In this document: in pieces, positions 3,633 to 61,701 of the stretch
Position numbering within the stretch: the stretch's first letter is position 1
How the letters are laid out: every line of letters begins with the position of its first letter
Source: Eledone cirrhosa
Lineage: Eukaryota
Direction: 5' to 3'
Assembly: GCA_964016885.1 (NCBI GenBank)
Contig: OZ024757.1
Coordinates: forward strand, 6,386,001-6,450,000
DNA: 64,000 nucleotides
Notes under the pieces: model-generated
Told to the model about the DNA's origin: nothing
Seen by the model: only the letters and a program-made list of their open reading frames with translations
Database searches by the model: none
Made by a program: the position numbers and the translations under genes

Positions 3633-4865
<1,233 letters not shown>

Positions 4866-19761: not shown

Positions 19762-20868
<1,107 letters not shown>

Positions 20869-21936: not shown

Positions 21937-24900
21937 TCATCATCATCATCATCATCGTTTAACGTCCATGTTCCACGCTTGCATGGGTTTGGACGGGAGT
22001 TTTCCCACTTGAGGCAAGAGTGGTTGTCTTGCTCGCATAGGACTGTCTGGCAGGTTTTCTACAGTTGGATGCCCTTCCTAACACCAACCACATTTACAGT
22101 GTGGGACTGGGAGGTTTTTACCGTGTTGCCTACACGGCCACATTACAGCGTGGACCGTGTGTTTTTTTGTCTGACACCTACACGATCTCATTTGTTTCGG
22201 CCTGGATGTTGTGGCACCAACATAACTTTACATAGAAGGGGGCGGTGTGGATGGGGTGGGGGTGGTGGGACGGGGTGGGGGTGGTGGGACGGGGGTGTAT
22301 TTTGTTAGAGATGCCTACTGACTGTAGTAGGTTTTACTTTGTATTTAGGTAAGGCGGGTCTTCTCTATTACTAAGTACCGCCAAAGGTCTCGGTCCAGTG
22401 ACATTGTCTTGGTGAGGTGTAAGTGTGTGAGGTCGGAGTTTATCAGCTCGTCCCAGGTTTTTCTGGGTCTGCCTATTCCGTGGCTACCGTCTATCTTTAT
22501 TGCCCTGCACTTTGTTATACAGCTATCGTCCTTCATGCGCATCACGTGACCATACCAGCGTAGCCTTCTCTCTAGTAAACAACATCTGATCCCTCTTATT
22601 TCTAATTTTTTCCTTAGTTCGTTTATGCTTTGTCGTTCACGTGTATTACTATTACACATCCAGCGGAGCATGCAAGCTTCGTTTCTCTCTAGTCTGCGTA
22701 TATCCTCTGCACACAATGCCCAGGTCTCACTGCCATGCAACATTGCTGTTCGTATGCAGGCATCGTATAACCTGCCTTTCATTTTTAGGGAGAACCCTTC
22801 AGCGGCTAATAGTGGTATAAGCTCTCTAGCTACTGTACTTTCAGAGCACCCTCCCCCACTGCTGATTTTGTCAACCAGGTAACGGAAGCTGTCCACTATT
22901 TCTATAGAACCCTCTGCGCAGTTGAAAGAGCTAGTATTTTGTGGGCACTTGCTGCTACTTATTGCCCCAGAACACCGGCCGCATGTAAAATCTATGTTCT
23001 TAGTTAGCTTACCTGTGATCCCACTACATCTTTTATGAACCCAAACTTTGCATTTGGGACACAAAATGGAATTTCTACCTACGCCTTTCCTACACTCTGC
23101 GCATGGCCACTTCCCGGAGGGGACCGCCGCCTTATTTTCTTTCTTACAAACTAGAACTTTAGTCTTAGCCAGGTTAATTTTAAGGCCTTTTGATTCTAGG
23201 CCGTGCTTCCATGTTTGGAATTTCTTCTCTAGCTCGGCCATTGATTCAGCTATGAGCTTTAGATCGTCTGCGTATAGGAGTTCCCATGGGCAGCCGGTCT
23301 TGAACTCCACTGTTATAGCCTGGAGGGCAATAATAAATAGTAGGGGGCTAAGAATAGAGCCCTGATGAACACCAACTTTTACACTAAACTCTTCACTATA
23401 TTCGTTGTTAATTCTAACCTTGCTGACTGTTTCTTTATACATGGCTTGTATAGCTCTCACAAGCCATTCATCAACACCTAGTTTTCTAAGAGCCCACTAG
23501 ATAATGGAACGGGGGACTCTGTCGAAGGCCTTCTCCAAGTCGACGAAAGCTAAGTATAGGGGTTTACTTTTAGCTAGGTACTTCTCCTGTAGTTGTCGTA
23601 CAATGAAAAGAGCGTCTGTGGTACTTTTTCCTGACACAAACCCGAACTGCATTTCATCTAGATCAATTTGCTCTCTGATTAGTTGCGCTATTACTTTTTC
23701 CGTGACCTTCATGACCTGGTCGATTAATTTAATGCCTCTATAGTTACTCCTATCTAGGGCATCTCCTTTACCCTTATAACAGTTAACGATAATGCTGCTA
23801 CGCCAGTCCTTCGGAACAACCCCATTATGTATGACTTGGTTGACTATCCGGGTGACCATGGTGTGTCCCACCGTACCAGATGCCTTCAGCATCTCGGCAA
23901 CTATTTCCGAAGACCCAGCCGCCTTGCCTGTCTTCATATCTTTGATTGCCTTACTTATTATACTACCCTCGACTAACACTGCTGGTCCCTCTATTGGGTC
24001 GATGTGGGGGAGACTGTCTTTCTCCCATTTATTCTCCTCATTTAGTAGCCTTTCATAGTGACACTTCCAAGCTACCTTCTTATCGGCGTCGGTGATGGCA
24101 AGTACGCCGTCATCGTTAAGTACACACTTCTCCCCGACAATATCACTGTTTTCCTTGACACTTTGCCTAGCAATCCTGAACACCTCACGTTTTTGGTCCT
24201 CACGTTGTAGAACATGCTTGAACTTTCTTTCCTCTGCTTCCCTTCTTGCGAAGTACACTTGTCTCCTAGCCACTTGATAGTCTTCTCTTCTTCCCCCATC
24301 CCGCCATACTTTCCAAGCCTGCTTTTTGGCCTTAATTGACCCCTCCACCTTACTGTTCCACCACCATGTTACTCTCCTCCTGCCTACAGGCCTGCTCCAG
24401 CCACAGACTTCGTCTGTTGCCGTCAGCAGGTTTGCTTTCAGGAATTCCCACTGTTCCTCTACCTTGTACGACTCTATTTGCTCTTCCTTACTGTCGAAAG
24501 CATCAAGTAATATGCTTTGGAATTTATTTTTGGTTGTGGGGTCCTTTAGCTTCCATATTTTTCTCCTGAGGGTAGTCCTCTTCTGTTGCCTAGTACGTCT
24601 CGTCCTGACTATTAGGTCGCTAATTATCAGTCTATGTTGGGAGGTGCATTCTTCATGGGGGAGGGATTTAGTGTTTACAACAGTCACTTTGTCACGTCTT
24701 CTGGTAAGGATATAATCTACCTGGCTGGTATGTTCCCCCGATCTATAGGTGATAAAGTGATTGTCTCATTTTTTGAAGTTAGTGTTGCAGATATTTAGGT
24801 TATTTGCGTCACAGAATTCCAGGATTCTGGAGCCTTCCTCATTTCTAGTACCGAACCCATAGCCTCCATGGATTTCGTCGTAGCCGTCACAATGTTGTCC

Positions 24901-25624: not shown

Positions 25625-26019
25625 CCATCTAATCTCTCTTCGCGGCCGAATTGTTGATTTGAGAATGTAAGCAAACCACTATTGTCTGTCTTTCCATTTT
25701 TTGTAGTCCATTTGACCAGTGTCATTTAATCTGTCATTTATGTCTGTTTAGAATCTAATCTCTCTTTTTTTCTCTCGGAATTTCTATTAATATTTCACAC
25801 GTTTTTAATAATATGCCTCATTCTGTTTGACTCTTCCTTAAAACTAACCTTATCCTAAAGTTATCCATTTCCTGCCCTCTCACACCTGCACACCACCATT
25901 GCTATTTGGTCCAATCATAACTCACCGGTTTATAGTAAGTTCTCTTACCAATCTGTATAGCAAAGCCACCACCTCTGTTATTACTCCTTAAGTTTAGACC
26001 TGGTTGTTTTTCGGTTTGC

Positions 26020-27875
26020 TAAGTGGACTGCGGAATTTGGAAAGTCTGAACACTCAATGACAATGTCGCAGATAAAAATAAATTCACCCCCCGCTGCAAG
26101 ACGAGAATGCAAGGACCCCTCTTTATTTCAGACATGGATGACCAACATAATTCCATCTCCCACACACCTCCCTGCCCCTCCAACCCATCAATTCCACTCA
26201 CCCAACTTTAGAGTTGGTACCATGAATGTAGGCACATTGAAAGGTAATTCAAATGAGGTTGTAGAGATAATTGAACGTAAGGAAGTTGATGTTTGTTGTG
26301 TTCAAGAGACTAGGTGCAGGGGTGGGTCTGCTAGATTCATTGTGGGTAAAAAACGATGCTATAAACTTTTCTGGGTGGGAAATGACAACGGACTGGGTGG
26401 AGTAGGAATTATGTTAGCAGAGAAATGGGTAGATAAGGTAATTGCCATAAATAGAGTGAATGACAGAATAATTAAAATAAGACTAGTTCTAAATAGAACA
26501 ACTATGACTATAATATCCACTTATGCACCCCAATCTGGCCTACCTGACGTAATAAAAGACAGGTTCTATGAGTCGCTAATGCACACTACTTCCCAAATAA
26601 CCGATAGCGACTACTCAATTGTTGCTGGTGACCTAAATGGTCATGTTGAACAACATAGTGATGGCTATGATGGAATCCATGGAGGCTATGGTTTGGTACT
26701 AGAAATGAGGAAGGCTTCAAAATCCTGTGACGCTAATAACATGTCTGTAACACAAACTTCAAAAAACGAGACAGTCACTTGATCACCTGTAGATCAGGGG
26801 AACACACCAGCCAGGTAGATTATAACCTTACTAGAAGACATGACAAAGTGCTGTTGTAAACACTAAGTCACTCCCCCATGAAGAATTCACCTCCCAACAT
26901 AGCTTAGTAGTTAGTGACCTCACAGTCAGGACTAGACGTACTCGACAACAGAGGAGGACTACCTTGAGGAGAAGAATACGGAAGTTGAAAGACCCCACAG
27001 CCAGTGATAAATTTAAAAGTTTATTACTTGATGATTTTGACAGTAAGGAAGAGCAATTAGAGATGCACAATATAGCGGAACAGTAGGAATTTATGAAAGT
27101 TAACCTGTTGAAGGCGACAGATGAAATCTGTGGCTGGAGTAGACCTATAGGCAGGAGGAGAGTAACTTGGTGGTGGAACAGTAAGGTGGAGGAGTCAATC
27201 AAGGCCAAAAAGCAGGCTTGGAAAGCATGGCAGGATGGGGGAAGTAGAGAACACTATTAAGTGGCCAGGAGGGAAACTAGGAGACAAGTGTACTTTGCAA
27301 GAAGGGAAGCAGAAGAAAGAAAATTCAAGCATGTTCTACAATGTGAGGACCAACAACGTGAGGTGTTCAGGATTGCAAGACAGTGTGTCAAGGAAAACCG
27401 TGATATTGTCGGGGAGAAGTGTGTCCGTAATGATGATGGTGTACTTGCCCTCACTGATACTAACAAGGTATCTTGGAAGTGTCACTACGAGAGACTACTA
27501 AATGAGGAGAATAAATGGGAAAAAGATAGTCTGCCCCAAATCGATCCAATAGGGGACCAGCGGTGCAATCAAAGATATGAAGACAGGAAAGGCAGCGGGC
27601 CTTCGGAGATAGTTGCTGAGATTTTGAAAGCATCTGGAATGGTGGAACATACAATGGTCACCCGGATAGTAAACCAAGTAATACAGAATGGGGTCATACC
27701 AAAGGACTGGTGCAGCAGTATCATCGTTAACTGCTCTACCAAACTATAGAGGCATTAAGGTAGTTGACCAGGTCATGAAGGTCACAGAAAGAGTTATAGC
27801 AGAACTAATCAGAGATCGAATTGATCTAGATAAAATGCAGTTTGGGTTCGTGCCAGGTAAAAGTACCACCGCTAA
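26020..27875 (+). mobile_element. 5' half of a related RTE LINE, degenerate
   Basis: Endonuclease ORF 26057-26782 and fragments to QFGFVPGKSTT, with multiple stops and frameshifts. Confidence 0.9.
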
Positions 27876-30174: not shown

Positions 30175-31386
30175 ATATTATATATACACTGTGTACAGGA
30201 TATATTATACACTATATATATATATTATATATACACTATGTACAGTATATATTATACACTATATATGATGTTGTCCAAGAGAAAGGCAATGGCTGATACA
30301 GCTTGGCACCAGTGACATCACAACATATATACACTATATATATATATTATATATACACTATGTACAGTATATATTATACACTATATATAATGTTGTCCAA
30401 GAGAAAGGCTATGTGATACATCTTGGCACCAGTGACATCACAACATATATACTATATATACATTATATATACACTGTACAATATATATTATACACTATAT
30501 ATGATGTTGTCCAAGAGAAAGGCTATGGCTGATACAGCTTGGCACCAGTGTCACAACATATATACTATATATACATTATATATACACTGTGTACAGTATA
30601 TATTATATACTATATATAATGTTATCCAAGAGAAAGGCTATGGCTGATACAGCTTGGCACCAGTATCACAACATATACACTATATATATATTATATATAC
30701 ACTGTGTACAGTATATATACACTATATATACATTATATATACACTGTGTACAGTATATATTATACACTATATATGATGTTGTCCAAGAGAAAGGCAATGG
30801 CTTATACAGCTTGGCACCAGTGACATCACAACATATATACTATATATATATATTATATATACACTGTGTACAGTATATATTATACACTATATATGATGTT
30901 GTCCAAGAGAAAGACAATGGCTGATACAGCTTGGCACCAGTGTCACAACATATATACTATATATATATTATATATACACTGTGTACAGTATATATACACT
31001 ATATATATATTATATATACACTGTGTACAGTATATATTATACACTATATATAATGTTGTCCAAGAGAAAGGCTATGTGATACAGCTTGGCACCAGTATCA
31101 CAACATATATACTATATATATATTATATATACACTATGTACAGTATATATTATACACTATATATATATTATATATACACTGTGTACAGTATATATTATAC
31201 ACTATATATAATGTTGTCCAAGAGAAAGACAATGGCTGATACAGCTTGGCACCAGTAACATCTCAACATATATACACTATATATATATTATATATACACT
31301 GTGTACAGTATATATTATACACTATATATAATGTTGTCCAAGAGAAAGGCTATGGCTGATACAGCTTGGCACCAGTGACATCACAA
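30175..31386 (-). repeat. SINE-derived minisatellite array
   Basis: About nine ~55-bp cores with TA-rich spacers. The last core runs directly into the SINE head. Confidence 0.9.
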
Positions 31387-31522
31387 CTCATTTCTACAGC
31401 TGAGTAAACAATGTGAAATAAAGTGTCTTGCTCAAGGAAACAACAAATCATACGGTGCGATAATCGAACTCACAACCATACGATTGCAAGCCCAATGCTC
31501 TAACCACTAAGCCATGATACCT
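31331..31522 (-). mobile_element. tRNA/CORE-type SINE 5' part
   Basis: On -: tggcttagtggttagagc (A box), gagttcgatt (B box), ccttgagcaagacactttatttcac, then the satellite core. Confidence 0.8.
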
Positions 31523-31952
31523 TCCAGAACCAACCGTGATATAGAGAGACCATAAAGACAACCGTTGTTTTCATAGTCTAAGCTTTAAAATACCTCTCAT
31601 ACATGCTTTAAGTACATATAAACTCATTAAAACACACTTTTGTATTTAAACACCAAAAACAGCCAGTAACGATCGTATAGAAACTACCACCAACCATCAT
31701 ACCACTAGTTACCAATGAGGACTATTGCCAGCCACGGTAGCCACTTGGTAATACACTACACATCTCCCGTCAATCTATGAAGGGTTTGTAGTAGATTAGA
31801 GCAAAACACAATCAGTAAAACAGTAATGGAATGAAAAATATAAACATTTGTTCATAATTAAAGCCTTAAGATGTCCCTTCCTTACGATATACACTTTAAT
31901 AACATTGAAACTTATTTAATAAGTTTCAAATTTAAACACTTTTTATTCAGAC

Positions 31953-32046
31953 GTACCGCGATAAGAAATTAGATACGTTCCTAAGAAATATCCGCGATGT
32001 AACGGGACCGCGAAAAGTGAACCGCGATATAGCGGGGGATTATTGT
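31953..32046. mobile_element. pogo/Tigger-like terminal inverted repeat end
   Basis: ccgcgaaaagtgaaccgcgatatagcgggggatta(c/t)tg-ta. Copy B is at ~50515-50665. Confidence 0.55.
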
Positions 32047-32098
32047 ATATATACACACACAACATACATCTATCTATATACAATCATAACATATATTT

Positions 32099-32716
32099 CG
32101 GCAGTGTCATGGTATTAGCTGTCAGAAGTGAAAGTAGAAGAAGGTGACGTCATTCGTCAACCTTCTTAATCCTTTATTTCCGTATCACTATTCCCTTTAT
32201 TTATGTTTAGGATTTTCTAAGAGATACGTTTACGATGAGATACACTTATTAAAAAATATGGGGACCAAATAAGCCCGTAATTTTCGAGAGAAACGATAAT
32301 ATACAATTTATTTAACATGTGCATTAAAAACTACACTAGCTGTTACAATTGTAATTAACGTGTAAGAACTTAAATGAAAATATAGGTGGCCCTTAAAAGG
32401 GCCGGTGTTGAACTTAAATTTGGTTTCTAATTTGATAACCATGACTTGTTTCAACACCGGCCCTTTTAAGGGCCACCTATATTTTCATTTAAGTTCTTAC
32501 ACGTTAATTACAATTGTAACAGCTAGTGTAGTTTTTAATACACATGTTAAATAAGATTGTATATTATCGTTTCTCTCGAAAATTACGGGGTTATTTGGTC
32601 CTCATAAATAAAATAATAAACGTAAAAAAACGGAATAGTGATATGGAAATAAAGGATTGAAAAGGTTGACGACTGACGTCACCTTCTTTCTGACAGCTAA
32701 TACCACGACAGTGCCC
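32099..32716. mobile_element. palindromic MITE with a histone-type stem-loop in each arm
   Basis: Long inverted arms (ggcagtgtcatggtattagctgtcagaa / ttctgacagctaataccacgacagtgcc). GGCCCT-TTTA-AGGGCC-ACC at 32459-32477 (+) and 32385-32403 (-). Confidence 0.85.
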
Positions 32717-33069
32717 TTTATTTCGATATCTTACGTTAAAATGTTGACTGAGGGTGTGACAACTGTTTCTTGTTTGAGGTTGTTCCAGGGGTTGAAATAT
32801 AGACGGAGGTAATTAAATAATAAAGACAGTCATAACAATATATTTTATATCACATGTAACAGTGGAATCTGATGATTGAGAAATATCACATCAACATTTC
32901 AGTTTGGAAGTGTTTTTTCTATATATAAAAGTGGAGGAAGAAATATATTTTTCTAATGTTGTTATATATATTTTCACTTGTATATAATTACTGGGTCGTT
33001 GTAGGGTTCACATAATTATATTATTTACACACATTAATATAGACATTAAGTAAATCTTTGTCAACTTAC

Positions 33070-33268
33070 CTCCTTCACATATAATCAATGTATTGTGTTG
33101 TTAGTTGTTACTAAACAACCAAAGAAATAATCTCTTTGTTATCAAATTAGAAGTTTCAATGTTATCAGCTTTATTTCACGACATTAACGTTGGTGTATCT
33201 TCTTCATCTTTAGTCATAAATTGATATCTTGTCAGAATGAAGTAGTGAGGCTGACTTTATGTCTTTAG
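33070..33268 (-). other. predicted 199-nt non-coding 5'-UTR exon
   Basis: On -: tttcctatcaaatctgtAG| ... gaaggag|GTAAGTtg. Both sites and the length are conserved at 51696-51894. Confidence 0.5.
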
Positions 33269-33468
33269 CTACAGATTTGATAGGAAATATATATATATTA
33301 GGTTGATATGTGGTCTAAAATATATATATTGTCTATAAATGACTGATAGCAGATGTTCTGGTGAAATAGTAGTTTTACTACTACAGATTGTAATGGAACT
33401 CTTAGTAGACACAATTGTAAAGTAAGAATAGATATGACAGTGTAAGACTGATGGCGGGGAATTAAAAT

Positions 33469-33505
<37 letters not shown>

Positions 33506-33854
33506 GTTACACAAGATATAATTAGATTAATTAAATTTATAATGAAGACAGTAGGTACCCGCTGTGGTTGGTAATGTTTCAACTGTCGTACCGGTGCCAC
33601 ACGTTAAAAGTCCCTGATATAATTTAATACCTTCAGACACAGTTCCAATCGTATTTACTTGATTGTAAATCAGAAAGTATCACTCAATAAAATATCAATT
33701 ATATATCAATAAGAAAACCTCTACGTAGTCTCTCTAACTGCTAGAAATAGCAGCGATATTATCCAATACAACTGTTCTCTCTCTCTATATATATATTTAT
33801 ATATATACCCACACATATATGTACGTATGTATGTAAATGTGTATACAACTCTTA

Positions 33855-34470
33855 GTTGTATGTATAAACAACTATTTTATGGAGAGTTAGTTAAAGGAAA
33901 ACGACCTCCACATAAACCAAAAAAGAGGTCTAAGGATTCCTTGAAAGCCTCTTTGAAAGACGCTAACATCTCTGCTGATACATGGGAAAATGTTGCTGCT
34001 GATCGTAATGTGGGATGTGAGGAAGGGCATTACCATTGCATTTGCAGCCTCTGTGCGAGATTTTGCCTCAGCAAAGCTGGACTCGAAAGTCATCTTCGCA
34101 GTCACAAAGTAAGACCAGTGGTTGACTACCAGGCTGCTGTTGGAGATGCTACTCATCATGCCTGCCAAGCATGTGGTAGAGAATGTAACTCAGCAGGAAG
34201 GCTCAAACGACATGCAAAAGTACATCAACTCCAGCCACAGCCGGCTATTCCCAGTGAATGTTTTGGTTGCCAACTCTGTGCAAGACATTATAGATCATTG
34301 GCTGGGCTAAAAAGCCACATTCGATCGCAGCGCTGTTAGTTGCTATTATGTGTGTGCGTGTATATATATACATATATATATATATATATGTATATTATTA
34401 TTGTTGTTGTCGTTATTATTATTATTGTTTTTTTTTCCCTACTCGATAACGAGGGGGCAGCCATCATATA
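33855..34470 (+). mobile_element. 3' end of an RTE/BovB-like LINE with three C-terminal C2H2-like fingers
   Basis: KQLFYGELVKGKRP..KKR.KDSLKASLK..WENVAADR, then CSLC..HLRSH, CQAC..HAKVH and CQLC..HIRSQ. Confidence 0.7.
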
Positions 34471-34959
34471 TGGGTATGTATGAGTGTGTATGTGTGTTTG
34501 CACGTATGTATGGTGTGTATATATGTACATAGGGTTTTGGTATATGTACGTGTGGTGAACATGTGTATTTACCTGTAGGTATTTGAGTGTGCATTCTATA
34601 CGCATTTATGCGCGTATATTTATATATGTATACACACACACACATATTTATATGTGTGTGTGTGTATACGTTCGTATGTGTGTGGGTATGTGTCAAGCCG
34701 GTTTACGTATGTGTGCGCGTGTTTATGTGTACGTGCATGTATATGCATGCATGCCGTGTGTTTTCGCATATACACGTGTATAAATGTGTGTATGTATATA
34801 TTTAAGATTCATGATTTCAATAACATTCGTCATTTTCGTTCTACTAATTTATTTACATTATTCTGAACTCCGAAGCCGAGAATCATTCAGTTTCCTAAAT
34901 AATATATTAGTCTACGACTCCATTTATACCTTAAACGTGGTTTTGTCTTTGCGTGTAAT

Positions 34960-35150
34960 TGTTCTCACCGCTCCACATAACGAGGTATGATCTTCGCTTC
35001 TTTTCGTTCATTACCAGGGAACATCTTCACGAACCAAAGTATCGTCTTCCTGTTTTACTTCGGTTGCAGCATTTTTCAAAATATTTACTTCTACGTTCAC
35101 AGATTGATTTTTTTCAGTTTCAGATCCCGTTAAGGGTGAAAGCAGCAATT
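34960..35150 (-). promoter_or_regulatory. candidate ZNF promoter and first exon
   Basis: Locally CpG-rich non-microsatellite DNA with aaacaggaag (ETS-like) and possible donor cg|gtgaga at 34968. Conserved at ~54335-54520. Lies upstream of the 33.1-kb exon. Confidence 0.3.
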
Positions 35151-35269
35151 ATTTATGTATGTCGGGTGGGGATTGGAGAAGTAGGTCAGAGGGGTTACTT
35201 CGCTGGTAAGGGGGCGGGGTGTTAAGAAGTGGGGAGGAGGAAAATTGGGGCATACTTCAAACCACTAAA

Positions 35270-35690
35270 TGTTGCTTCATCCCGTGCACATGGGAATGCA
35301 GGTCTCATGCAGTACTGTATAACGCCAGAGATTTCAATCCTGTGTCATCACCTTTGTGAGGTACAAGGGTGTCAGGTCAGTTTTTACCTCCTCATCCCAA
35401 GCATTCATAGGTCTTCTTCTTCCATCAATTTCAAGCAGTCAACCTTTTATACAGCATCTCTACCTTCATACACATCACATGTCCATAACACAGCAATCTA
35501 CACTCCTGCATACTGTATCTTATCCCTCTCATGCCCAGGTTTTCTCTCAGATTATTTACACTTTGCTCTTCCTGTATATTAATATTACACATCCATTGGA
35601 GAATTCAAGCTTCATTTCTATCCAATCTTCGGAGGTCCTCTGCACACACCAACCAGATCTCACTGCAATGCAGCATTGCTGTTCATATTT
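35270..35690 (-). mobile_element. old RTE 3' fragment
   Basis: Homologue of 54650-55060 and inverted homologue of 6050-6460. Confidence 0.7.
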
Positions 35691-39631: not shown

Positions 39632-41377
39632 TTAGTGTGTAGTGAAGCCACAACATTTAGAGAATGATTTACCACAGATATCATAGTGATATGGCTTGTC
39701 TCCTGTATGGGTACGTTTGTGGCTAGTTAAGGTACCACTTAGAGAGAATGATTTACCACAGATATCACAGTGATATGGCTTGTCTCCTGTATGTGTACGT
39801 TTATGTGTAGTTAAGTTACTACTTAGAGAGAATGATTTACCACAGATATCACAGTGATATGGCTTGTCTCCTGTATGGGTACGTTTGTGGCTAGTTAAGG
39901 TACCACTTAGAGAGAATGATTTACCACAGATATCACAGTGATATGGCTTGTCTCCTGTATGGGTACGTTTATGTGTAGTTAAGTGACTACTATCAGAGTA
40001 TGATTTACCACAGATATCACAGTGATATGGCTTGTCTCCTGTATGTATAAGTTTGTGTCTAGTTAAGTGACTACTATTAGAGTATGATTTACCACAGATA
40101 TCACAGTGATATGGCTTGTCTCCCGTATGTGTGCGTTTGTGTCTAGTTAAGGTACTACTATCAGAGTATGATTTACCACAGATGTCACAGTGATATGGCT
40201 TGTCTCCCGTATGTGTACGTTTGTGTCTAGTTAAGTTACTACTTAGAGAGAATGATTTACCACAAATATCGCAGTGATATGGTTTCTCACCCGTATGGGT
40301 ATGTATGTGAGAAGTTAAGGCACTACTATCAGAGAATGATTTACCACAGACATCACAGCGATATTGCTTCTCTCCTGTATGGGTACGTTTGTGGCTAGAT
40401 AAGGTACCACTTAGAGAGAATGATTTACCACAGATATCACAGTGATATGGCTTCTCTCCTGTATGGGTACGTTTGTGGCTAGTTAAGGTACCACTTAGAG
40501 AGAATGATTTACCACAGATATCACAGTGATATGGCTTGTCTCCTGTATGTGTACGTTTATGTGTAGTTAAGTTACTACTTACAGAGAATGATTTACCACA
40601 GATATCACAGTGATATGGCTTGTCTCCCGTATGTGTACGTTTGTGGCTAGTGAAGGTACTACTTTGAGAGAATGATATACCACAGATATCACAGTGATAT
40701 GGCTTGTCTACTGTATGTGTATGTTTGTGTCTAGTTAAGTGACTACGTTGAGAGAATGATTTACCACAGATATCACAGTGATATGGTTTCTCTCCTGTAT
40801 GTGTGCATTTGTGCCTAGTTAAGGTACTACTATCAGAGTATGATTTACCACAGATATCACAGTGATATGGCTTGTCTCCCTTATGTGTGTGTTTGTGTCT
40901 AGTTAAGGTACTACTTACAGAGAAAGATTTACCACAGATATCGCAGTGATATGGCTTGTCTCCTGTATGGGTACGTTTGTGTCTAGTTAAGTGACTACTA
41001 TCAGAGTATGATTTACCACAGATATCACAGTGATATGGCTTGTCTCCTGTATGTATATGTTTGTGTCTAGTTAAGTGACTACTAACAGAGAATGATTTAC
41101 CACAGATATCACAGTGATATGGCTTGTCTCCTGTATGTATACGTTTGTGTCTAGTTAAGTGACTACCATCAGAGTATGATATACCACAGATATCACAGTG
41201 ATATGGCTTGTCTCCCGTATGTGTGCGTTTGTGTCTAGTTAAGTTACTACTTAGAGAGAATGATTTACCACAGATATCACAGTGATATGGCTTGTCTCCC
41301 GTATGTGTACGTTTATGTGTAGTTAGGCTACTACTTTGAGAGAATGATTTACCACAGATATCACAGTGATATGGCAT
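39632..41377 (-). CDS. C2H2 zinc-finger ORF (ZNF3), 20 fingers plus one degenerate; starts at a linker-derived ATG (gene or pseudogene)
   Basis: 581-aa uninterrupted ORF. The ancestral 5' end upstream is disabled. Confidence 0.75.
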   Translation of the reverse strand: MPYHCDICGKSFSQSSSLTTHKRTHTGDKPYHCDICGKSFSLSSNLTRHKRTHTGDKPYHCDICGISYSDGSHLTRHKRIHTGDKPYHCDICGKSFSVSSHLTRHKHIHTGDKPYHCDICGKSYSDSSHLTRHKRTHTGDKPYHCDICGKSFSVSSTLTRHKHTHKGDKPYHCDICGKSYSDSSTLTRHKCTHTGEKPYHCDICGKSFSQRSHLTRHKHTHTVDKPYHCDICGISFSQSSTFTSHKRTHTGDKPYHCDICGKSFSVSSNLTTHKRTHTGDKPYHCDICGKSFSLSGTLTSHKRTHTGEKPYHCDICGKSFSLSGTLSSHKRTHTGEKQYRCDVCGKSFSDSSALTSHIHTHTGEKPYHCDICGKSFSLSSNLTRHKRTHTGDKPYHCDICGKSYSDSSTLTRHKRTHTGDKPYHCDICGKSYSNSSHLTRHKLIHTGDKPYHCDICGKSYSDSSHLTTHKRTHTGDKPYHCDICGKSFSLSGTLTSHKRTHTGDKPYHCDICGKSFSLSSNLTTHKRTHTGDKPYHCDICGKSFSLSGTLTSHKRTHTGDKPYHYDICGKSFSKCCGFTTH

Positions 41378-41713
41378 GCCTCCTGTATGGGTAGGTTTGT
41401 GATCAGTTAAGCGACTGCTGAGAGAGAATGATTTACCACAGATATCACAGTGATATGGCTTATGTCCTGTATGGGTACGTATGTGAGAAGTGAAGTCACT
41501 ACTTCGAGAGAATTATTTACCACGGATATCACAATATGGCTTATCTCCTGTATGTATAACTTTGTGAGTAGTTAAGGTACTAAGTTTATTAAATGATTTA
41601 CCAGATATCACAGTGATATGGCTTCTCTTCTCTAACCTTCGTCATCTCACCAGGAATACTAAACACTTTAGATTGTGTTACACGTTTAATCTTCTTTGTC
41701 AAATATTTTCCAT
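41378..41713 (-). pseudogene. disabled ancestral leader and first fingers of ZNF3
   Basis: ATG GAA AAT ATT TGA at 41713 (1-nt loss vs ZNF1). 2-nt deletion in finger 1. His deletion, Cys>Arg and TAA in finger 2. Confidence 0.85.
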
Positions 41714-42697: not shown

Positions 42698-42909
42698 TAT
42701 ATATACACTGTGTACAGTATATATAATACCCTATATATGTTGTATGTTGTCCAAGAGAAAGGCTATGGCCGATACAGCTTGGCACTTGTGACATCACAAC
42801 ATATATATACACTATATATATTATACAGTATATATACACTATATATATGTCGAAGGGAAAGGCAATGCCTGACACAGCTTGGCACCAGTGACATCACAAC
42901 ATATATATA

Positions 42910-42953
<44 letters not shown>

Positions 42954-43378
42954 TGTGTACAGTATATATATATACACCATATATGTTGTCCAAGGGAAAT
43001 GTAATGGCTGATACAGCTTGGCACCAGTGACATCACAACATATATATACACTATATATATATATATATACACTGTGTACAATATATATATACACTATATA
43101 TGTTGTCCAAGGGAAAGGCAATGGCTGACACAGCTTGGCACCAGTGACATCACAACATATATATACACTATATATATATATATACACCATATATGTTGTC
43201 CAAGGGAAAGGCAATGGCTGACACAGCTTGGCACCAGTGACATCACAACATATATATACACTATATATATATATATATACACTGTGTACAATATATATAT
43301 ACACTATATATGTTGTCCAAGGGAAAGGCAATGGCTGACACAGCTTGGCACCAGTGACATCACAACATATATATATAA
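42698..43378 (-). repeat. SINE-derived minisatellite array
   Basis: Six cores with TA-rich spacers. Confidence 0.9.
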
Positions 43379-43794
43379 CTTATATCCCAGACTTCCATAG
43401 ATTATTTCTATTCTACAGCTATCTCTCTTCCCCACTTTCAAAATGTTCTGTTTACGTTATTATTATCATTCACTTGTTTCCACAACGTATATACTTCGAC
43501 CTTGTTTTTGATATAAACCATGTTGGACATTGTGTCTTTCTCTACAAACTCAACCCTAACCCCCGCCATTACCTCCCCTTTCTCCCACTCATTCATTTCG
43601 GTGATTACAAAGCTAGGAGACAATCTTTGAAATTCTTGCATATTTGCCTTGTCTAATATGTCTACTTACATCTGCTTATTTCCCCCCGAATCTCCTGTGA
43701 TGATATATGTCATGATGGCTACCTATCTCACAATTTCCCACTCACCACCATAGGCTATTTGACCAATCAAACCTCAGCAACATGTCCTTATCCA

Positions 43795-44785
43795 TTACCA
43801 GCCCCAACAAACTCTGCCATTACTACAACTGTCCTTCTAGCCCTTACCAGCCCCAACAAACTCTGCCATTACTACTACTGTCCTTCTAGCCCTTACCAGC
43901 CCCAACACACTCTGCAATTGCTACTACTGTCCTCCTAGCCCTTACCAGCCCCAACAAACTGCCATTAATACTACTGTCCTTCTAGCCCTTACCAGCCCTA
44001 ACAAACACTGCCATTACTACTACTGTCCTTCTAGCCCTTACCAGCCCCAACAAACTCTGCCATTACTACTACTGTCCTTCTAGCCCTTACCAGCCCCAAC
44101 AAACTCTGCCATTACTACTACTGTCCTTCTAGCCCTTACCAGCCCCAACAAACTCTGCCATTACTACTACTGTCCTTCTAGCCCTTACCAGCCCCAACAC
44201 ACTCTGCAATTGCTACTACTGTCCTCCTAGCCCTTACCAGCCCCAACAAACTGCCATTAATACTACTGTCCTTCTAGCCCTTACCAGCCCTAACAAACAC
44301 TGCCATTACTACTACTGTCCTTCTAGCCCTTACCAGCCCCAACAAACTCTGCCATTACTACTACTGTCCTTCTAGCCCTTACCAGCCCCAACAAACTCTG
44401 CCATTACTACTACTGTCCTTCTAGCCCTTACCAGCCCCAACAAACTCTGCCATTACTACTACTGTCCTTCTAGCCCTTACCAGCCCCAACACACTCTGCA
44501 ATTGCTACTACTGTCCTCCTAGCCCTTACCAGCCCCAACAAACTGCCATTAATACTACTGTCCTTCTAGCCCTTACCAGCCCTAACAAACACTGCCATTA
44601 CTACTACTGTCCTTCTAGCCCTTACCAGCCCCAACAAACTCTGCCATTACTACTACTGTCCTTCTAGCCCTTACCAGCCCCAACAAACTCTGCCATTACT
44701 ACTACTGTCCTTCTAGCCCTTACCAGCCCCAACAAACTCTGCCATTACTACTACTGTCCTTCTAGCCCTTACCAGCCCCAACACA
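43795..44785. repeat. 49-bp minisatellite (~20 copies) with 292-bp higher-order period
   Basis: Unit gccccaacaaactctgccattactactactgtccttctagcccttacca. Variant tctgcaattg occurs at 43911, 44203 and 44495. Confidence 0.92.
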
Positions 44786-46115
44786 CTCCCCCGCAAAAAT
44801 TCACCCTCTCCCACAAATGATGGCAAATGTCCAAAACTCTGAGTTGGCAGCATCAACATAAGCACAATGAAAGGAAGGGAAGGAGAAATTATAGACATGC
44901 TAGAGTGAAAAGATATTGACGTATGCTGTGGGCCAGGTCATGATGGACCAGGTCATGAAAGTAATGGAAAGAGTCATAGCACAGTTGATCAGGGACTGGG
45001 TAAAACTAGATGAGATGCAGTTTCGGTTGTTGCAGGAAAAAGCACCACTGATGCCCTCTTCCTTGTGAGGCAGTTACAGGTAAAGTACCTAGCTAAAAGC
45101 AAGCCGCTCAACCTGGCTCTGGTCGATATGGAAAAAGCCTTCCACAGAGTGCCCCGTGCTATAATATGGTGGGCTCTTAGAAATCTAGCAGTAGATGAGT
45201 GGCTTGTGAAAGCTGTACAAGCCATGTATAGGGGCCATGTCAGTAAAGTTAGGCTTAACAATTACTATAGCGAGGAATCTAGCATACAGGTCGGTGTCTA
45301 CCAGGGCTCTGTTCTTAGCCCTCTCCTGTTTATTATAGTATTGCAGGCTATAACAGAGGAGTTTAAGACCTGATGCCCATAGGAACTCCTATATGTGGAT
45401 GATCTTACACTTATAGCTGAATCTATGGCAGAACTAAAGAAACAAGCACCACCAAACTCTGGGAGAGCTCTGTAGAAACAATAGACAGCTTTTGCTACCT
45501 AGGTGACCGAATAAGCAGCAGAGATGGGTGTTCTGAAAGTACAGTAACCAGGGTAACAACGGGATTGAAGATGTTCAGGGAGCTACTGCCACTGCTAGCT
45601 GCAAAAGGCTTTTCCCTCAAAATGAAAGGCAGACAGTATGATGCGTGCATACGAACAGCAATGTTACATGGTAGTGAGACCTGGGCGCTGTCTGTAGAAG
45701 ACTTGCGTAGATTAGAAAGAAACGAAACTTGCATGCTCCGATGGATGTGTAATAGTAATATACGCGAACGGCAAAGCATTAACAAATTGAGAGAGAGACT
45801 GAGCATAAGAGGAATCAAATGCTGTGTGCAGCAGAGGAGGTTGTGTTGTAGCCCCTGGGTACAAGCCGAAGCACATAGACAATATTCCCCGACCCCCTCC
45901 CACTGTAAAGTGGCCATGGAGGTGTCACAACAAAAAAGCACCCATCACTCACTGTGAGGTTGGTGTTAGGAAGGGCATCCAGCTGTAGATATCAAGCCAG
46001 AATCAGTTCCCATCTGAGCAAGACAAGGTCACCCCACCTGGCACTGCCCACAACAGGACAACCTGTCTAACCCATACTACCGTGGAAGAAGGGACGTAAA
46101 ACGGTGATGATGATG
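44786..46115 (+). mobile_element. multiply deleted RTE LINE
   Basis: Endonuclease start (VGSINISTMKGR), RT pieces (LVDMEKAF, GVYQGSVLSP, LYVDD), post-RT region, tail and (GAT)n. Confidence 0.85.
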
Positions 46116-46379
46116 ATATACATACTGTATACAGTATCTATACACGATATATATGTCCAAGAGAAAGGCAATGGCCAATACAGCTTGGCACGAGTGACGT
46201 CAAAACATATATATATACTATATATATACACTATGTATATATTATATATACACTGTGTACAGTATATATCCACTATATATATGACCAAGAGAAAGGCTAT
46301 GGACGATACAGCTTGGCACTAGTAACATCACAACATATATATATATACAATATATATTATACAGTATATATATATATAA

Positions 46380-49300
46380 TCATGTTAGCAGAAAAATGGG
46401 TGGATAATATAATAGACGTAAATAGAGTAAACGACAGAATAATTAAAATAAGACATGTTCTAAATAGAACTACTGTGACAGTAATATCTACATACGCGCC
46501 CCAATCCGGACTGCCTGGCGCTATAAAAGACAGATTCTATGAGACACTGATGCTCACTACCTCCCGAATAACCGACAGTGACTATATAATTATTGCTGGC
46601 GACCTAAATGGTCATGTTGGACAACATTGTGATGGCTATGATGGAATCCATGGAGGCTATGGGTTTGGTACTAGAAATGAGGAAGGCTCCAGAATCCTGG
46701 AATTCTGTGACGCAAATAACCTAACAATCTGTAACACTAACTTCAAAAAACGAGACACTCACTTGATCACCTACAGATCAGGGGAACATACCAGCCAGGT
46801 AGATTATATCCTTACCAGAAGACGTGACAGAGTTACTGTTGTAAACACTAAATCCCTCCCCCATGAAGAATGCACCTCCCAATATAGAATGATAATTAGC
46901 GACCTCATAGTCAGGACGAGACGTACTAGACAGCAGAAGAGGACTATCCTCAGGAGAAAAATATGGAAACTAAAGGACCCCACAGCCAGAAATAAATTTC
47001 AAAGCATATTACTTGATGCTTTCAACAGTAAGGAAGAGCATTTAGAGTCGGACAATATAGAGGGACAGTGGGAATTCCTGAAAGCAAACCTGCTGATGGC
47101 GGCAGACAAAGTCTGTGGCCGGAGCAGGCCTATAGGCAGGAGGAGAGTAACATGGTGGTGGAACAGTAAGGTGGAGGAGTCGATTAAGGCCAAAAAGCAG
47201 GCTTGGAAAGTATGGCGGGATGGGGGAAGTAGAGAAGACTATCAAGTGGCCAGGAGGGAAGCTAGGAGACAAGTGTACTTCGCAAGAAGGGAAGCAGAGG
47301 AAAGAAAGTTCAAGCATGTTCTACAACGCGAGGACCAAAAACGTGAGGTGTTCAGGATTGCTAGGCAATGTGTCAAGGAAAACCGTGATATTGTTGGGGA
47401 GAAGTGTGTACTAAATGATGATGGCATACTCGCCATCACTGACGCTGATAAGAAGGTAGCTTGGAAGTTTCATTACGAGAGGCTACTAAATGAGGAGAAT
47501 AAATGGGAGAAGGATAGTCTACCCCAGATCGATCCAATAGAGGGACCAGCAGTGTTAGTTGAAGGTAGTATAATAAGTAAGGTAATCAAAGATATGAAGA
47601 CGGTAAGGCGGCTCGGCCTTCGGAAGTAGTTGCTGAGATGCTGAAGGCCTCTGGAACGGTGGGACACACCATGGTCACCCGGATAGTAAACCAAGTCATA
47701 CAGAATGGGGTTGTTCCGAAGGACTGGCGTAGCAGCATCATCATTAACTGTTACAAGGGTAAAGGAGACGCCCTAGATAGGAGTAACTATAGAGGCATTA
47801 AATTAATCGACCAGGTCATGAAGGTCACGGAAAAAGTAATAGTGCAACTAATCAGAGAGAGAATTGATCTACATGAAATGCAGTTTGCGTTTGTGTCAGG
47901 TAAAAGTACCACAGACGCTCTTTTCATTGTATGACAACTACAGGAGAAGTACCTAGCTAAAAGTAAACCCCTATACTTAGCCTTTGTCGACTTGGAGAAA
48001 GCCTTCAACAGAGTCCCCCGTTCCATTATCTGGTGGGCTCTTAGAAAACTAGATGTTGACGAATGGCTTGTGAGAGCTATACAAGCCATGTATAAAGAAG
48101 GTTAGAATTAACAACAAATATAGTGAAGAGTTTAGCGTAAAAGTTGGTGTCCATCAGGACTCTGTTCTTAGCCCCCTACTATTTATTATTGCCCTTCAGG
48201 CTATAACAGAGGAGTTCAAGACTGGCTGCCCATGGGAACTCCTATACGCAGATGATCTAACGCTCATAGCTGAATCAATGGCCGAGCTAGAGAAGAAATT
48301 CCAAACATGGAAGCACGGCCTAGAATCAAAAGGCCTTAAAATTAACCTGGCTAAGACTAAAGTTCTAGTTTGTAGGAAAGAAAATAAGGCGCCGGTCCCT
48401 TCCAGGAAATGGCCATGCTCAGTGTGTAGGAAAGGTGTAGGTAGAAACTCCATTTTATGTCCCAAATGCAAAGTATGGGTGCATAAACGATGTAGTGGGA
48501 TCACAGGTAAGCTAACAAAGAACACAGATTTTACATGTGGCCGGTGCTCTGGTGCAATAAGTAGCAGCAAGTGCCCACAAAATACTAGCTCTTTCAATTG
48601 CGCAGAGGGTTCTATAGAAATAGTGGACAGCTTCCGTTACCTGGGTGACAAAATCAGCAGTGGGGGAGGGTGCTCTGAAAGTACAGTAGCTAGAGTCAGA
48701 ACTGGATGGAAAAAGTTCAGAGAGCTTATACCACTATTAGCCGCTAAAGGGTTCTCCCTAAAAATGAAAGGCAGGTTGTATGATGCCTGCATACGAACAG
48801 CAATGTTGCATGGCAGTGAGACCTGGGCATTGTGTGCAGAGGATATACGCAGACTAGAGAGGAACGAAGCTTGCATGCTCTGCTGGATGTGTAATAGTAA
48901 TATACGTGAACGGCAAAACATAAACAAACTAAGGAAAAAATTAGAAATAAGAGGGATCAGATGTTGTTTACTCGAGAGAAGGCTACGTTGGTATGGTCAC
49001 GTGATGCACATGAAAGTCGATAGCTGTATAACAAAGTGCAGGGCAATAAAGATAGACGGTAGCCACGGAATAGGCAGACCCAGAAAAACCTGGGACGAGC
49101 TGATAAATTCCGACCTCACACACTTACACCTCTCCAAGACAATGTCACTGGACCGAGACCTTTGGCGGTACTCAGTAATAGAGAAGACCCGCCTTACCTA
49201 AATACAAAGTAAAACCTACTACAGTCAGTAGGCATCTCTAACAAAATACACCCCCGTCCCACCACCCCCACCGCCCCTTTCAATGTAAAGTTATGTTGGT

Positions 49301-49707: not shown

Positions 49708-49889
49708 TACATTATATATATTATACAGTATATATACACTATATATATATTATACAGTATATATACACTATATATATTATACAGTATATGTACACTATAT
49801 ATATATTATACAGTATATATACACTATATATATATTATACAGTATATATATACACTATATATATTATAGAGAATATATACACTATATAT

Positions 49890-50082
49890 ATGTCCAAGGG
49901 AAAGGCTATGGCCGATACAGCTTGGCACCAGTGACATTACAACTCATTTCTACAGCTGAGTAAACTGGAGCAACGTAAAATAAAGTGTCTTGCCCAAGGA
50001 CACAACACATCACATGGTCCGAGAATCGAACTCACCAACTTTTAATTGTAAGCCCAATGCTCTAACCACTAAGCCATGATAC
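49890..50082 (-). mobile_element. tRNA/CORE-type SINE 5' part (copy B)
   Basis: Homologue of 31331-31522. Confidence 0.8.
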
Positions 50083-50716
50083 CTTCCAGAACCAACCGTG
50101 ATATAGAGAGACCATAAAGACAACCGTTGTTTTCATAGTTTAAGCCTTAAAATACCTCTCATACATGCTTTAAGTACATATAAACTCATTAAAACACACT
50201 TTTGTATTTAAACACCAAAAACAGCCAGTAACGATCGTATAGAAACTACCACCAACTATCATACCACTAGTTACCAATGAGGACTATTGCCAGCCACGGT
50301 AGCCACTTGGTAATACACTGCACATCTCCCGTCAATCTATGAAGGGTTTGTAGTAGATTAGAGCAAAACACAATCAGTAAAACAATAATGGAATGAAAAA
50401 TATAAACATTTGTTCATAATTAAAGCCTTAAGATGTCCCTTCCTTACGATATACACTTTAATAACATTGAAACTTATTTAATAAGTTTAAATTTTAAATA
50501 CTTTTTATTCAGACGTACCGCGATAAGAAACTAGATATGTTCTAACGAATAATCCGCGATGTGGCGAGGATTACCGCGATAGGAAATTAGATACGTTCCA
50601 AAGACATATCCGCGATGTAACGGGACCGCGAAAAGTGAACCGCGATATAGCGGGGGATTACTGTATATATACACACACAACATACATCTATCTATATACA
50701 CTCATAACATATATTT

Positions 50717-51338
50717 CGGCAGTGTCATGGTATTAGCTGTCAGAAGTGAAAGTAGAAAAAGGTGTCGTCATTCGTCAACCTTCTCAATCCTTTATTTCCG
50801 TATCACTATTCCCTTTATTTATGTTTAGGATTTTCTAAGAGATACGTTTACGATGAGATACACTTATTAAAAAATAATATGGGGACCAAATAACCCCGTA
50901 ATTTTCGAGAGAAACGATAATATACAATCTTATTTAACATGTGCATTAAAAACTACACTAGCTGTTACAATTGTAATTAACGTGTAAGAACTTAAATGAA
51001 AGTATAGGTGGCCCTTAAAAGGGCCGGTGTTGAACTTAAATTTGTTTTCTAATTTGATAACCATGACTTGTTTCAACACCGGCCCTTTTAAGGGCCACCT
51101 ATATTTTCATTTAAGTTCTTACACGTTAATTACAATTGTAACAGCTAGTGTAGTTTTTAATACACATGTTAAATAAGATTGTATATTATCGTTTCTCTCG
51201 AAAATTACGGGGTTATTTGGTCCCCATAAATAAAATCATAAACGTAAAAAAACGGAATAGTGATATGGAAATAAAGGATTGAGAAGGTTGACGACTGACG
51301 TCACCTTCTTTCTGACAGCTAATACCACGACAGTGCCC
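50717..51338. mobile_element. palindromic MITE with histone-type stem-loops (copy B)
   Basis: Stem-loops at 51010-51025 (-) and 51081-51096 (+), identical to copy A. Confidence 0.85.
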
Positions 51339-51695
51339 TTTATTTCGATATCTTACATTAAAATGTTGACTGAGGGTGTGGCAACTGTTTCTTGTTTGAG
51401 GTTGTTCCAGTGGTTGAAATATAGACGGAGGTAATTTAAATAACAAAGACAGTCATGATAACAATATATTTTATATCACATGTAACAGTGGAATCTGATG
51501 ATTGAAAAATATCACATCAACATTTCAGTTTGGAAGTGTTTTTTCTATATATAAAAGTGGAGGAAGAAATATATTTTTCTAATGTTGTTATATATATTTT
51601 CACTTGTATATAATTACTGGGTCGTTGTAAGGTTCACATAATTATATTATTTACACACATTAATATAGACATTAAGTAAATCTTTGTCAACTTAC

Positions 51696-51894
51696 CTCCT
51701 TCACATATAATCAATGTGTTGTGTTGTTAGTTTTTACTAAACAACCAAAGAAATAATCTCTTTGTTATCAAATTAGAAGTTTCAATGTTATCAGCTTTAT
51801 TTCACGACATTAACGTTGGTGTATCTTCTTCATCTTTAGTTATAAATTGATATCTTGTCAGAATGAAGTAGTGAGGTTGACTTTATGTCTTTAG
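51696..51894 (-). other. predicted 199-nt non-coding 5'-UTR exon (copy B)
   Basis: Same acceptor and GAG|GTAAGT donor as 33070-33268. Confidence 0.5.
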
Positions 51895-52469
51895 CTACAG
51901 ATTTGATAGGAAATATATATATATTAGGTTGATATGTGGTCTAAAATATATATATTGTCTATAAATGACTGATAGCAGATGTTCTGGTGAAATAGTAGTT
52001 TTACTACTACAGATTGTAATGGAACTCTTAGTAGACACAATTGTAAAGTAAGAATATATATGACAGTGTAAGACTGATGTCGGGGAGAGTAAATTGTGTA
52101 TATATATATATATATAATTGTTACACTAGATATAATTAGATTAATTAAAGTTATAATGAAGATAGCAAGTACCCGGTGTCGTTGAGAACGTTTCAACTGT
52201 CGTACCGGTGTCACACGTTAAAAGTCCCTGATGTAATTTAAAACCTTCAGACACAGTTCCAATCGTATTTAATTGATTGTAAATCAGAAAGTATCACTCA
52301 ATAAAATATCAATTATATATCAATAAGAAAACCTCTACGTAGTCTCTCTAACTGCTAGAAATAGCAGCGAAATTATCCAATACAACTGTTCTCTCTCTCT
52401 ATATATATATTTATATATATACACACACATATATGTACGTATGTATGTAAATGTGTATACAACTCTTAT

Positions 52470-53125
52470 GTGTATGTATAAACAACTATTTTATGGAGAT
52501 TTAGTTAAAGGAAAACGACCTCCACATAAACCAAAAAAGAGGTCTAAGGATTCCTTGAAAGCCTCTTTGAAAGACGCTAACATCTCTGCTGATACATGGG
52601 AAAATGTTGCTGCTGATCGTAATGTGGGATGTGAGGAAAGGCATTACCGTTGCATTTGCAGTGTCTGTGCGAGATTTTGCCTCAGCAAATCTGGACTCGA
52701 AAGTCATCTTCGCAGTCACAAAGTAAGACCAGTGGTTGACTACCAGGCTGCTGTTGGAGATGCTACTCATCATGCCTGCCAAGCATGTAGTAGAGAATGT
52801 AAATCAGCAGGAAGGCTCAAACGACATGCAAAAGTACATCAACTCCAGCCACAGCCGGCTATTCCCAGTAAATGATTTGGTTGGCAACTCTGTGCAAGAC
52901 ATTTTAGATCATTGGCTGGGCTAAAAAGCCACATTCGATCGCAGCGCTGTTGGTTGCTATTATGTGTGTGTGTGTATATATATACATATATATATATACA
53001 TGTATATTATTATTGTTGTTGTCGTTATTATTATTACTATTATTATTATTATTACTATTATTATTATTGTTTTTTTTTCTCGTGCAATGGCCATACTCGA
53101 TAACGAGGGGGCAGCCATCATATAT
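52470..53125 (+). mobile_element. RTE/BovB-like 3' end with C2H2-like fingers (copy B)
   Basis: Homologue of 33855-34470, with a stop before the third finger. Confidence 0.7.
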
Positions 53126-53282
53126 GGGTATGTATGAGTGTGTATGTGTGTTTGCACGTATGTATGATGTGTATATATGTACATAGGGTTTTGGTATATG
53201 TACGTTTGGTGAACATGTGTATTTACCTGTAGGTATTTGTGAGTGCGTTCTATACGCATTTATGCGCGTATATTTATATATG

Positions 53283-60034: not shown

Positions 60035-60368
60035 GCCTCTTGTATGGGTAGGTTTGTGATCAGTTAAGTAACTGCTGAGAGAGAATGATTTACCACAGAT
60101 ATCACAGTGATATGGCTTATGTCCTGTATGGGTACGTTGTGAGAAGTTAAGTCACTACTTCGAGAGAATTATTTACCACGGATATCACAATATGGCTTAT
60201 CTCCTGTATGTATAACTTTGTGAGTAGTTAAGGTACTAAGTTTATTAAATTATTTACCAGATATCACAGTGATATGGCTTCTCTTCTCTAACCTTCGTCA
60301 TCTCACCAGGAATACTAAACACTTTAGATTGTGTTTCGCATTTAATCTTCTTTGTCAATTATTTTCCT
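60035..60368 (-). pseudogene. disabled ancestral leader and first fingers of ZNF4
   Basis: The original ATG is deleted (gaagaaggaaaataattgac). Shares the finger-1 and finger-2 lesions of ZNF3, plus further changes. Confidence 0.85.

Positions 60369-61535: not shown

Positions 61536-61569
<34 letters not shown>

Positions 61570-61669: not shown

Positions 61670-61701
<32 letters not shown>

Follow-up and report, generated by a model that had tools for sequence, protein, structure and literature searches.

A palindromic Merlin transposon of the octopus Eledone cirrhosa with the captured 3' end of a histone H4 gene

Introduction

Only replication-dependent histone mRNAs are held to end with a stem-loop (PMC4604434). 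The window analysed here, a stretch of 64,000 nucleotides from Eledone cirrhosa that forms part of a C2H2 zinc-finger gene cluster in a genome of 3.0 Gb, contains a palindromic DNA transposon with such stem-loops in both arms, and this raises the question of how they came there and whether they act as mRNA ends. A preliminary description, made from the sequence alone, had suggested that a parent element may end its transposase mRNA in the histone manner. Our preferred reading, to which we give a probability of roughly 0.6, is that the palindrome is a non-autonomous Merlin element with a captured H4 3' end and that the stem-loops would be passengers rather than working mRNA ends.

The palindrome and its surroundings

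The element is a palindrome of 616 bp, as had been recognised for 32099..32716, with true limits (32100-32715) one base inside those. Its left and right arms align with 251 matches, 14 mismatches and 4 gaps, the inner arms (32308-32412 and 32450-32554) are 99% complementary with a centre of 37 nt between them, and the DNA is predicted to fold at -259.6 kcal/mol (z -52 against 20 shuffles). The motif GGCCCT-TTTA-AGGGCC-ACC is found in both arms (32459-32477, +; 32385-32403, -) and again at 51081 (+) and 51010 (-), where sequence and Rfam Histone3 matches agree with the positions first given, and both stem-loops of the palindrome do read outward from its short centre. The features of the locus are the following.

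32091..32099, + strand: degenerate left target-site duplication (7/9 bases match 32716-32724)
32100..32715, no strand: non-autonomous palindromic Merlin (IS1595-type) element without ORF, 616 bp; relatives have 8-bp target-site duplications and a PF12762 transposase
32100..32127, + strand: left terminal inverted repeat, starts with GG, 93% complementary to the right repeat
32214..32253, - strand: distal piece of H4 flank, found in the left arm alone, some +300 to +340 from the stem; 38/38 aligned bases identical to L171 2817-2856
32257..32410, - strand: captured H4 segment, left-arm copy; 130 matches, 6 mismatches, 7 gaps against L171
32388..32403, - strand: histone stem-loop of the left arm, outward; Rfam 40.5 bits
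32411..32451, no strand: centre, Merlin-internal sequence, 97.6% identical to L097 5189-5229; motif also in the 3' UTR of L152
32452..32606, + strand: captured H4 3' end and flank, right arm; 131 matches, 6 mismatches, 6 gaps against L171
32459..32474, + strand: histone stem-loop of the right arm, outward; Rfam 40.5 bits; 43/44 nt as in the donor H4
32491..32495, + strand: AAGTT, host-type downstream motif (putative U7-pairing element); mirror at 32367-32371, - strand
32688..32715, - strand: right terminal inverted repeat, pairs with the left repeat
50718..51337, no strand: second copy, 98% identical, loops at 51081-51096 (+) and 51010-51025 (-); segmental duplication of a zinc-finger-gene unit

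The copy at 50718 did not arise by an independent insertion, since it sits inside a duplicated block (31268-35688 versus 49815-55062, 92-96% identity) that contains both window copies. The window copy has no clean 8-bp target-site duplication (TSD), the degenerate 7/9 match being its sole candidate, and no empty insertion site for it was found among the loci examined. An assembly artefact is unlikely: many diverged copies have TSDs, and contigs of the X1/X2 runs bridge both ends and the centre, these contigs coming from one study, possibly of the source sample, and hence not being independent. A histone pseudogene in the window is not supported, as none of its 43 ORFs of at least 120 aa encodes a histone, in line with what had been stated before.

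The surroundings are repetitive. Four ORFs encode C2H2 zinc-finger arrays with 84-bp repeats in tandemly duplicated units (3633-4865 (+), 19762-20868, 39632-41512, 57422-60151 (-)), and pieces of LINE reverse transcriptase or endonuclease ORFs, labelled by eye, lie at 22345-24765, 25961-27749 and 46100-49201. Two short ORFs on the + strand (33713-34339 and 52327-52875), 1 kb from the element and duplicated with it, encode divergent C2H2-like fingers and are possibly the tail of a LINE ORF. A tandem repeat family of about 120 bp (1-985, 30200-31400, 42700-43375, 61330-61900) and a 49-bp tandem array (43783-44790, 62317-63003) recur in the duplicated units.

Family assignment

Merlin elements have been defined by terminal inverted repeats (TIRs) of 24-462 bp starting with 5'-GG, TSDs of 8 or 9 bp and a DDE_Tnp_IS1595 transposase (PMC8101967). 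The palindrome is a non-autonomous, foldback-like Merlin (IS1595-type) DNA transposon, because its TIRs of 28 bp, with GG at 32100 and 32715, fit this definition, 8-bp target duplications flank dispersed copies that have these ends, and its relatives encode a PF12762 transposase. Among 33 end pairs of the family, some of which were wrongly paired by the script, the two TSDs matched at 8/8 in 13 cases, 7/8 in 7, 6/8 in 5 and at most 5/8 in 8, and never at 9/9. The genome has 85 exact matches to the window TIR type, 548 to a degenerate TIR pattern and 608 to the loop with ACC, as against 0 for each reversed control.

One copy of 2355 bp (L097) combines window-type TIRs and loops in both arms with PF12762 transposase fragments inside. 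An ORF of 302 aa in another (L152, 3407-4315) matches PF12762 with E 6.7e-19 and has the DDE triad in the motifs VEIDE, ISDLW and HIECLW. The proteins nearest to the related transposase are ISXO2-like transposases of Octopus bimaculoides and O. sinensis (79% and 73%). The families hAT, Mutator, P and PIF are not favoured, since copies with these same ends contain PF12762. Transposase copies differ by about 2% from the column majority and are, by this measure, recent. The N-terminus of the L152 protein has CPSC and CKRPC motifs that suggest a zinc finger, PF12762 being its sole Pfam match; Merlins are said to be without Zn_Tnp_IS1595 (PMC8101967).

Several palindromic Merlins contain two divergent transposase copies (L148, L154 and L159 of subfamily B; L151 and L096 of another family). 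The 8-bp TSDs are perfect in L154 and L159 and match at 7/8 in L148, so that these three moved as units. The family also has giant members, with many TIR pairs lying 23-31 kb apart:

C1:155773155-155798795, C1:392475292-392498874 and C2:36344524-36369827 (G000), plus three more (L219-L236): giant Merlin elements

All six giant copies tested (23.6-28.4 kb) have TSDs, five of them at 8/8 (one inside a TA repeat) and one at 7/8, and they have a collinear cargo of ~870-bp satellite units, simple repeats and LINE fragments in common; three have the B transposase ORF at one end. No viral cargo was recognised by eye among their ORFs of at least 170 aa, and Rfam RNAs other than Histone3 were not found in the six stretches. 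The word Merlin does not occur in a review of giant eukaryotic transposons (PMC6431247).

Capture of a histone H4 3' end

The four window loops match Rfam Histone3 (RF00032) with 40.5, 40.5, 40.5 and 39.5 bits, against a gathering score of 34, and no other Rfam match was found in the 64-kb window; the check that had been proposed thus upholds their first identification as histone mRNA 3' stem-loops. They have a 6-bp stem with G at position 2, a 4-nt loop with U1 and U3, and ACC on the 3' side. A stem-loop follows 52 of the 56 core-histone ORFs scanned in the host.

The source of the loops is one of 12 H4 genes, G000:C7:67458180-67458491 (L171, L255), whose own stem-loop scores 42.1 bits. The loop region of the window copy matches this gene in 43 of 44 nt (40 in the next best H4 gene), the right-arm 5' flank (32452-32458) is the same as in the donor, with the 5' adenines present, and the arm is about 96% identical to the H4 3' end and flank over 137 aligned bases, the match extending into flank that is specific to the donor gene. 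In the right arm, the segment has a deletion of 58 nt beginning directly after the downstream motif. A sister copy (L101) retains the last 8 H4 codons, the stop and the UTR of the donor (226 matches, 10 mismatches). A host fragment thus lies between TIRs and its donor locus is identified, as in other cases of host-gene capture; a chance hairpin or convergence is ruled out by the donor gene, with reversed-pattern controls at 0. The capture, of about 410 bp, went from host to element, because L101 contains H4 codons and no TIR is present within 10 kb around the donor H4; the opposite direction is ruled out on the same grounds. The donor loop TTTC has become TTTA in the element, by which the DNA palindrome reaches 7 bp per side, and the captured module is found in both arms of three amplified subfamilies. 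As an aside, five H4 ORFs displayed among the host histone genes (L237-L272) start with MTGRG, the usual H4 start being MSGRG.

The first reading had added the caveat that no clear purine-rich downstream element was visible. This falls, because the host histone genes, which are likewise without a long purine-rich element, share an (A/T)AGT-type motif about 16-20 nt past the stem, and the element has the same motif. With a profile built from 38 non-H4 host genes, the downstream region of the element scores 12.7 against a host median of 13.6 (shuffle p 4e-4). The AAGTT of the element may serve as a U7-pairing element. A U7 gene above the Rfam cut-off was not found (best 29.7 bits, E 0.23; 65 scored of 585730 candidates). 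The sub-cut-off U7-like candidate L194 (G000:C3:314686447-314686503, -) has a pyrimidine tract without obvious pairing to the host AAGT.

Stem-loops behind transposase genes

Among the best 30 PF12762 loci the loop is present in two, both of subfamily B, and in 0 of the 28 others, which are the top transposase loci of other Merlin families. Twenty further loci were taken from 150 scored PF12762 hits, 17 of them belonging to B, and the B set comprises 27 transposase 3' ends at 24 loci, none picked via the loop. A loop in sense orientation lies downstream of the stop in 26 of these 27 ends, at distances of 97-458 nt with a mode of 137 (15 at exactly 137 nt, 18 at 134-137 nt), and most B copies have a further loop, directed away from the ORF, in their 5' arm. 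ORF-bearing relatives with the loop 3' of the stop, which the preliminary description had hoped for, therefore do exist, and its proposal does not fall on this ground. The transposase-linked loop scores 34.0 bits, which is the Rfam cut-off itself, is predicted to fold within the transposase UTR (p 0.99-1.0), and is followed by an intact downstream motif (score 16.4, shuffle p 2e-4); just upstream of it recurs the sequence that forms the centre of the window palindrome (32411..32451).

These observations would fit a co-option of the H4 signal by the transposase subfamily, in which SLBP and U7 would cut the mRNA after the loop, partly or in oocytes, tying it to S phase, the time at which cut-and-paste elements gain copies, while the outward loop of the other arm would cut antisense read-through; Ac/Ds offers a rationale for such replication-coupled transposition (PMC5371812). 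We nevertheless consider co-option rather unlikely. An A at -3 or -2 is found in none of the 26 transposase-linked loops as against 52 of 52 host genes, two 5' adenines being part of the minimal SLBP site (PMC10388802), and the flank of these loops scores -8.8, far from the host range of 1.2 to 7.8. In 50 of 52 host genes the loop lies 19-49 nt past the stop, and a distance of 25-60 nt has been called critical for regulated stability (10.64898/2026.10.14.759114); the transposase copies lie beyond this range, and the window copy has no ORF from which to count. In 24 of 27 B ends an AATAAA comes first, upstream of the loop, and CA and U/GU-rich sequence follow it. In the window subfamily, whose copies have a host-type flank, none of the 15 loci scanned showed a transposase of its own. 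What stands of the earlier suggestion is thus the position of the loop behind the transposase stop, whereas the lost adenines and the preceding AATAAA speak against a histone-type mRNA end. Comparison of the coding element with histone upstream regions gave no convincing match, which speaks against a histone promoter having been taken up by the transposase gene.

Conservation, trimming and spread

Conservation of the loop above the rest of the arm, which had been named as a further test, is seen neither in the cluster copies, with 9 minor alleles at 32 loop sites versus 68 at 221 arm sites (p = 1.0; 35 aligned rows), nor in the coding B copies, where divergence is 3.0% in the loop versus 2.2% in the ORF (27 transposase ends). 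This also counts against co-option, in a test that is blind to selection on a few active master copies, because in the ORF, too, the three codon positions decay alike (2.2, 2.0 and 2.3%).

The trimming of the captured DNA points the other way. Of the ~410 bp, subfamily B keeps only the part from the stem start to +64/+70 (20-22 of 23 TIR-chosen ends), as does subfamily M (27-29 of 30); in the window subfamily the retained part runs from -7 to +36, ahead of its deletion (8-9 of 15). The common core is thus exactly the loop and the downstream motif, as co-option would have it; the trims are few and partly nested, and the hairpin itself can fix breakpoints. The 5' trimming, which ends exactly at the first stem base, would equally suit a palindrome kept as a subterminal site at the DNA level, where binding of transposase or a host factor, or the hairpin as such, would aid pairing or cutting of the ends. 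Such a site would explain why the palindrome is found in each arm of coding and non-coding members alike, at 150-340 bp from the tips, and the change from TTTC to TTTA extends it. We hold this to be unlikely, since a loop-less copy of 175 bp (L103) has a perfect 8-bp TSD (its loop may have been lost after insertion), other Merlin families here move without a loop, and breakpoints at a hairpin base can be mutational.

Segmental duplication has carried the window copy itself through the zinc-finger cluster. Among the 35 aligned rows, two of which are the same locus, 23 have at least one flank in common with the window copy and 12 represent another insertion context, in which the 8-bp TSD is intact; most cluster copies therefore stem from segmental duplication of about two insertions. 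In six cluster copies (L011, L033-L035, L111, L113) the left and right flanks belong to different insertion contexts, which suggests ectopic recombination through the palindrome.

At least 22 loci with the flanks of the window copy lie in, or resemble, the zinc-finger cluster, and the loop and flank of the window copy are canonical, as in H4 over 43 of 44 nt. One may ask whether the window copy now serves the host as an exapted histone-type 3' end of zinc-finger-cluster transcripts. This is highly improbable: the nearest zinc-finger stop is 7 kb off, conservation does not exceed that of the arm, and in a read-through RNA the loop is predicted to be buried. For an RNA running from the TIR to the loop of the window copy the predicted stem-pair probability is 0.0, whereas a transcript starting in the centre is predicted to form the loop.

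Merlin elements at histone loci

Within 36 stretches chosen for their histone genes (360 kb) there are 6 exact family TIRs, against 0.066 expected from the genome count of exact TIRs (Poisson P 1e-10), so that family ends lie about 90-fold above the genome average near histone genes; counted by locus, 3 of ~20 have a TIR (P ~4e-5). With up to 3 mismatches allowed, 12 TIR ends with differing flanks are found in 5 stretches. A Merlin trace of any kind is present in 9 of 36 histone stretches versus 0 of 20 arbitrary ones (200 kb, unmatched in gene density; p = 0.012), and TIRs alone in 5 of 36 versus 0 of 20, which is not significant (p = 0.10). The insertions are located as follows.

C7:79.69, C7:93.73, C2:142.16 and C2:321.54-321.57 Mb (L238, L244, L253, L261, L262): about 7-8 family insertions, a few kb or less from histone genes

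The end of one coding copy lies about 60 nt past an H3 loop. An H4 gene at G000:C7:25163.3-25163.9 kb (L256, L164) has kept its promoter and first codons, and right after them a piece of transposase from a different Merlin family (43% to family A) takes the place of the gene's interior; the stem-loop of this H4 gene is gone. Targeting of histone loci by Merlin elements is no more than likely, because some of the 36 stretches were known to contain Merlin before they were chosen and the control is unmatched. Since loop-less Merlin families also occur at histone loci, the preference likely came first and would explain the capture.

Origin of the palindrome

We envisage that a Merlin element landed at a histone locus, that about 400 bp of H4 tail and flank were copied into it during gap repair, that copying from arm to arm placed the H4 module in both arms, and that internal deletion left the ORF-less palindrome, which would have been mobilised in trans by the transposase of ~302 aa. 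The mRNA of this transposase would normally end at the AATAAA, 71 nt past the stop and upstream of the loop, and in a read-through RNA of the window copy the loop would lie concealed within a single long duplex. We favour this passenger reading because of the lost adenines, the 137-nt distance, the upstream AATAAA, the absence of excess conservation, the buried loop and the loop-less state of other Merlins. It has to contend with deletions that spare exactly the loop and the downstream motif, and with a loop that lies in sense orientation 3' of the stop in nearly all B ends and is predicted to fold. The fuller scenario, in which an octopus Merlin homes to histone loci, took the H4 3' signal and now uses SLBP and U7 to end its transposase mRNA with S-phase or oocyte timing, seems to us quite improbable.

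Significance

Transposons that capture gene fragments are already on record, among them a Culex Helentron with a piece of H4 (PMC4067079), as are, by title, foldback elements in histone genes. No description of a histone 3' end within a transposon, or of histone-locus or octopus Merlins, came up in the literature listings searched, with Repbase, Dfam and subscription journals outside their scope; the family may be recorded already in Repbase, Dfam or supplements. A paper on Octopus vulgaris repeats tabulates 2 recently active Merlin families, and the word histone is absent from its main text (PMC13282606).

In the present case, copies of a cut-and-paste transposon in an animal genome have brought a histone 3'-end signal to about 600 sites, compared with the 52 stem-loop histone genes seen. 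The dispersed loops will mislead Rfam-based histone annotation and could truncate host transcripts or add hairpins to them, and the enrichment at histone loci represents a possible new insertion preference. A transposase mRNA that did end at the loop would break the histone-only rule and give a transposon a direct readout of the cell cycle.

Comparison with known systems

The signal resembles the 3' end of replication-dependent histone mRNAs (RF00032, SLBP, U7) in stem, loop, 3' ACC, host-type downstream motif and descent from H4 (PMC4604434, 10.64898/2026.10.14.759114). It differs in that no histone ORF precedes it and that the transposase copies have no 5' adenines, a distance of 137 nt and a poly(A) signal ahead of the loop.

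Long-TIR DNA elements reported at histone genes also include the foldback elements TFB1 of Chironomus and TU1 of sea urchin, compared here by title alone. Sea urchin TU1 reportedly sits in an H2B orphon. The titles, cited in PMC4079207, give no sign of a histone 3' end or of Merlin identity.

With Merlin and IS1016/IS1595 elements as described in PMC8101967, the family has in common the GG-ended TIRs, the 8-bp TSD, a single DDE_Tnp_IS1595 transposase of about 300 aa, internal tandem repeats and the occurrence of several families per genome. Unlike the Merlins described there, in a paper whose main text does not contain the word histone, it has arms with captured host histone DNA, members of up to 24-28 kb and an enrichment at histone loci. 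Like Pack-MULEs and the gene-capturing Helitrons and Helentrons, its non-autonomous members have host gene fragments between their ends and would be moved in trans (PMC6431247, PMC4067079). The Pack-MULEs cited in PMC6431247, by contrast, measure at most 7 kb. Unlike all of these, the element belongs to another superfamily, and what it has kept of its host gene is a 3' processing signal, located in both arms and behind a transposase stop.
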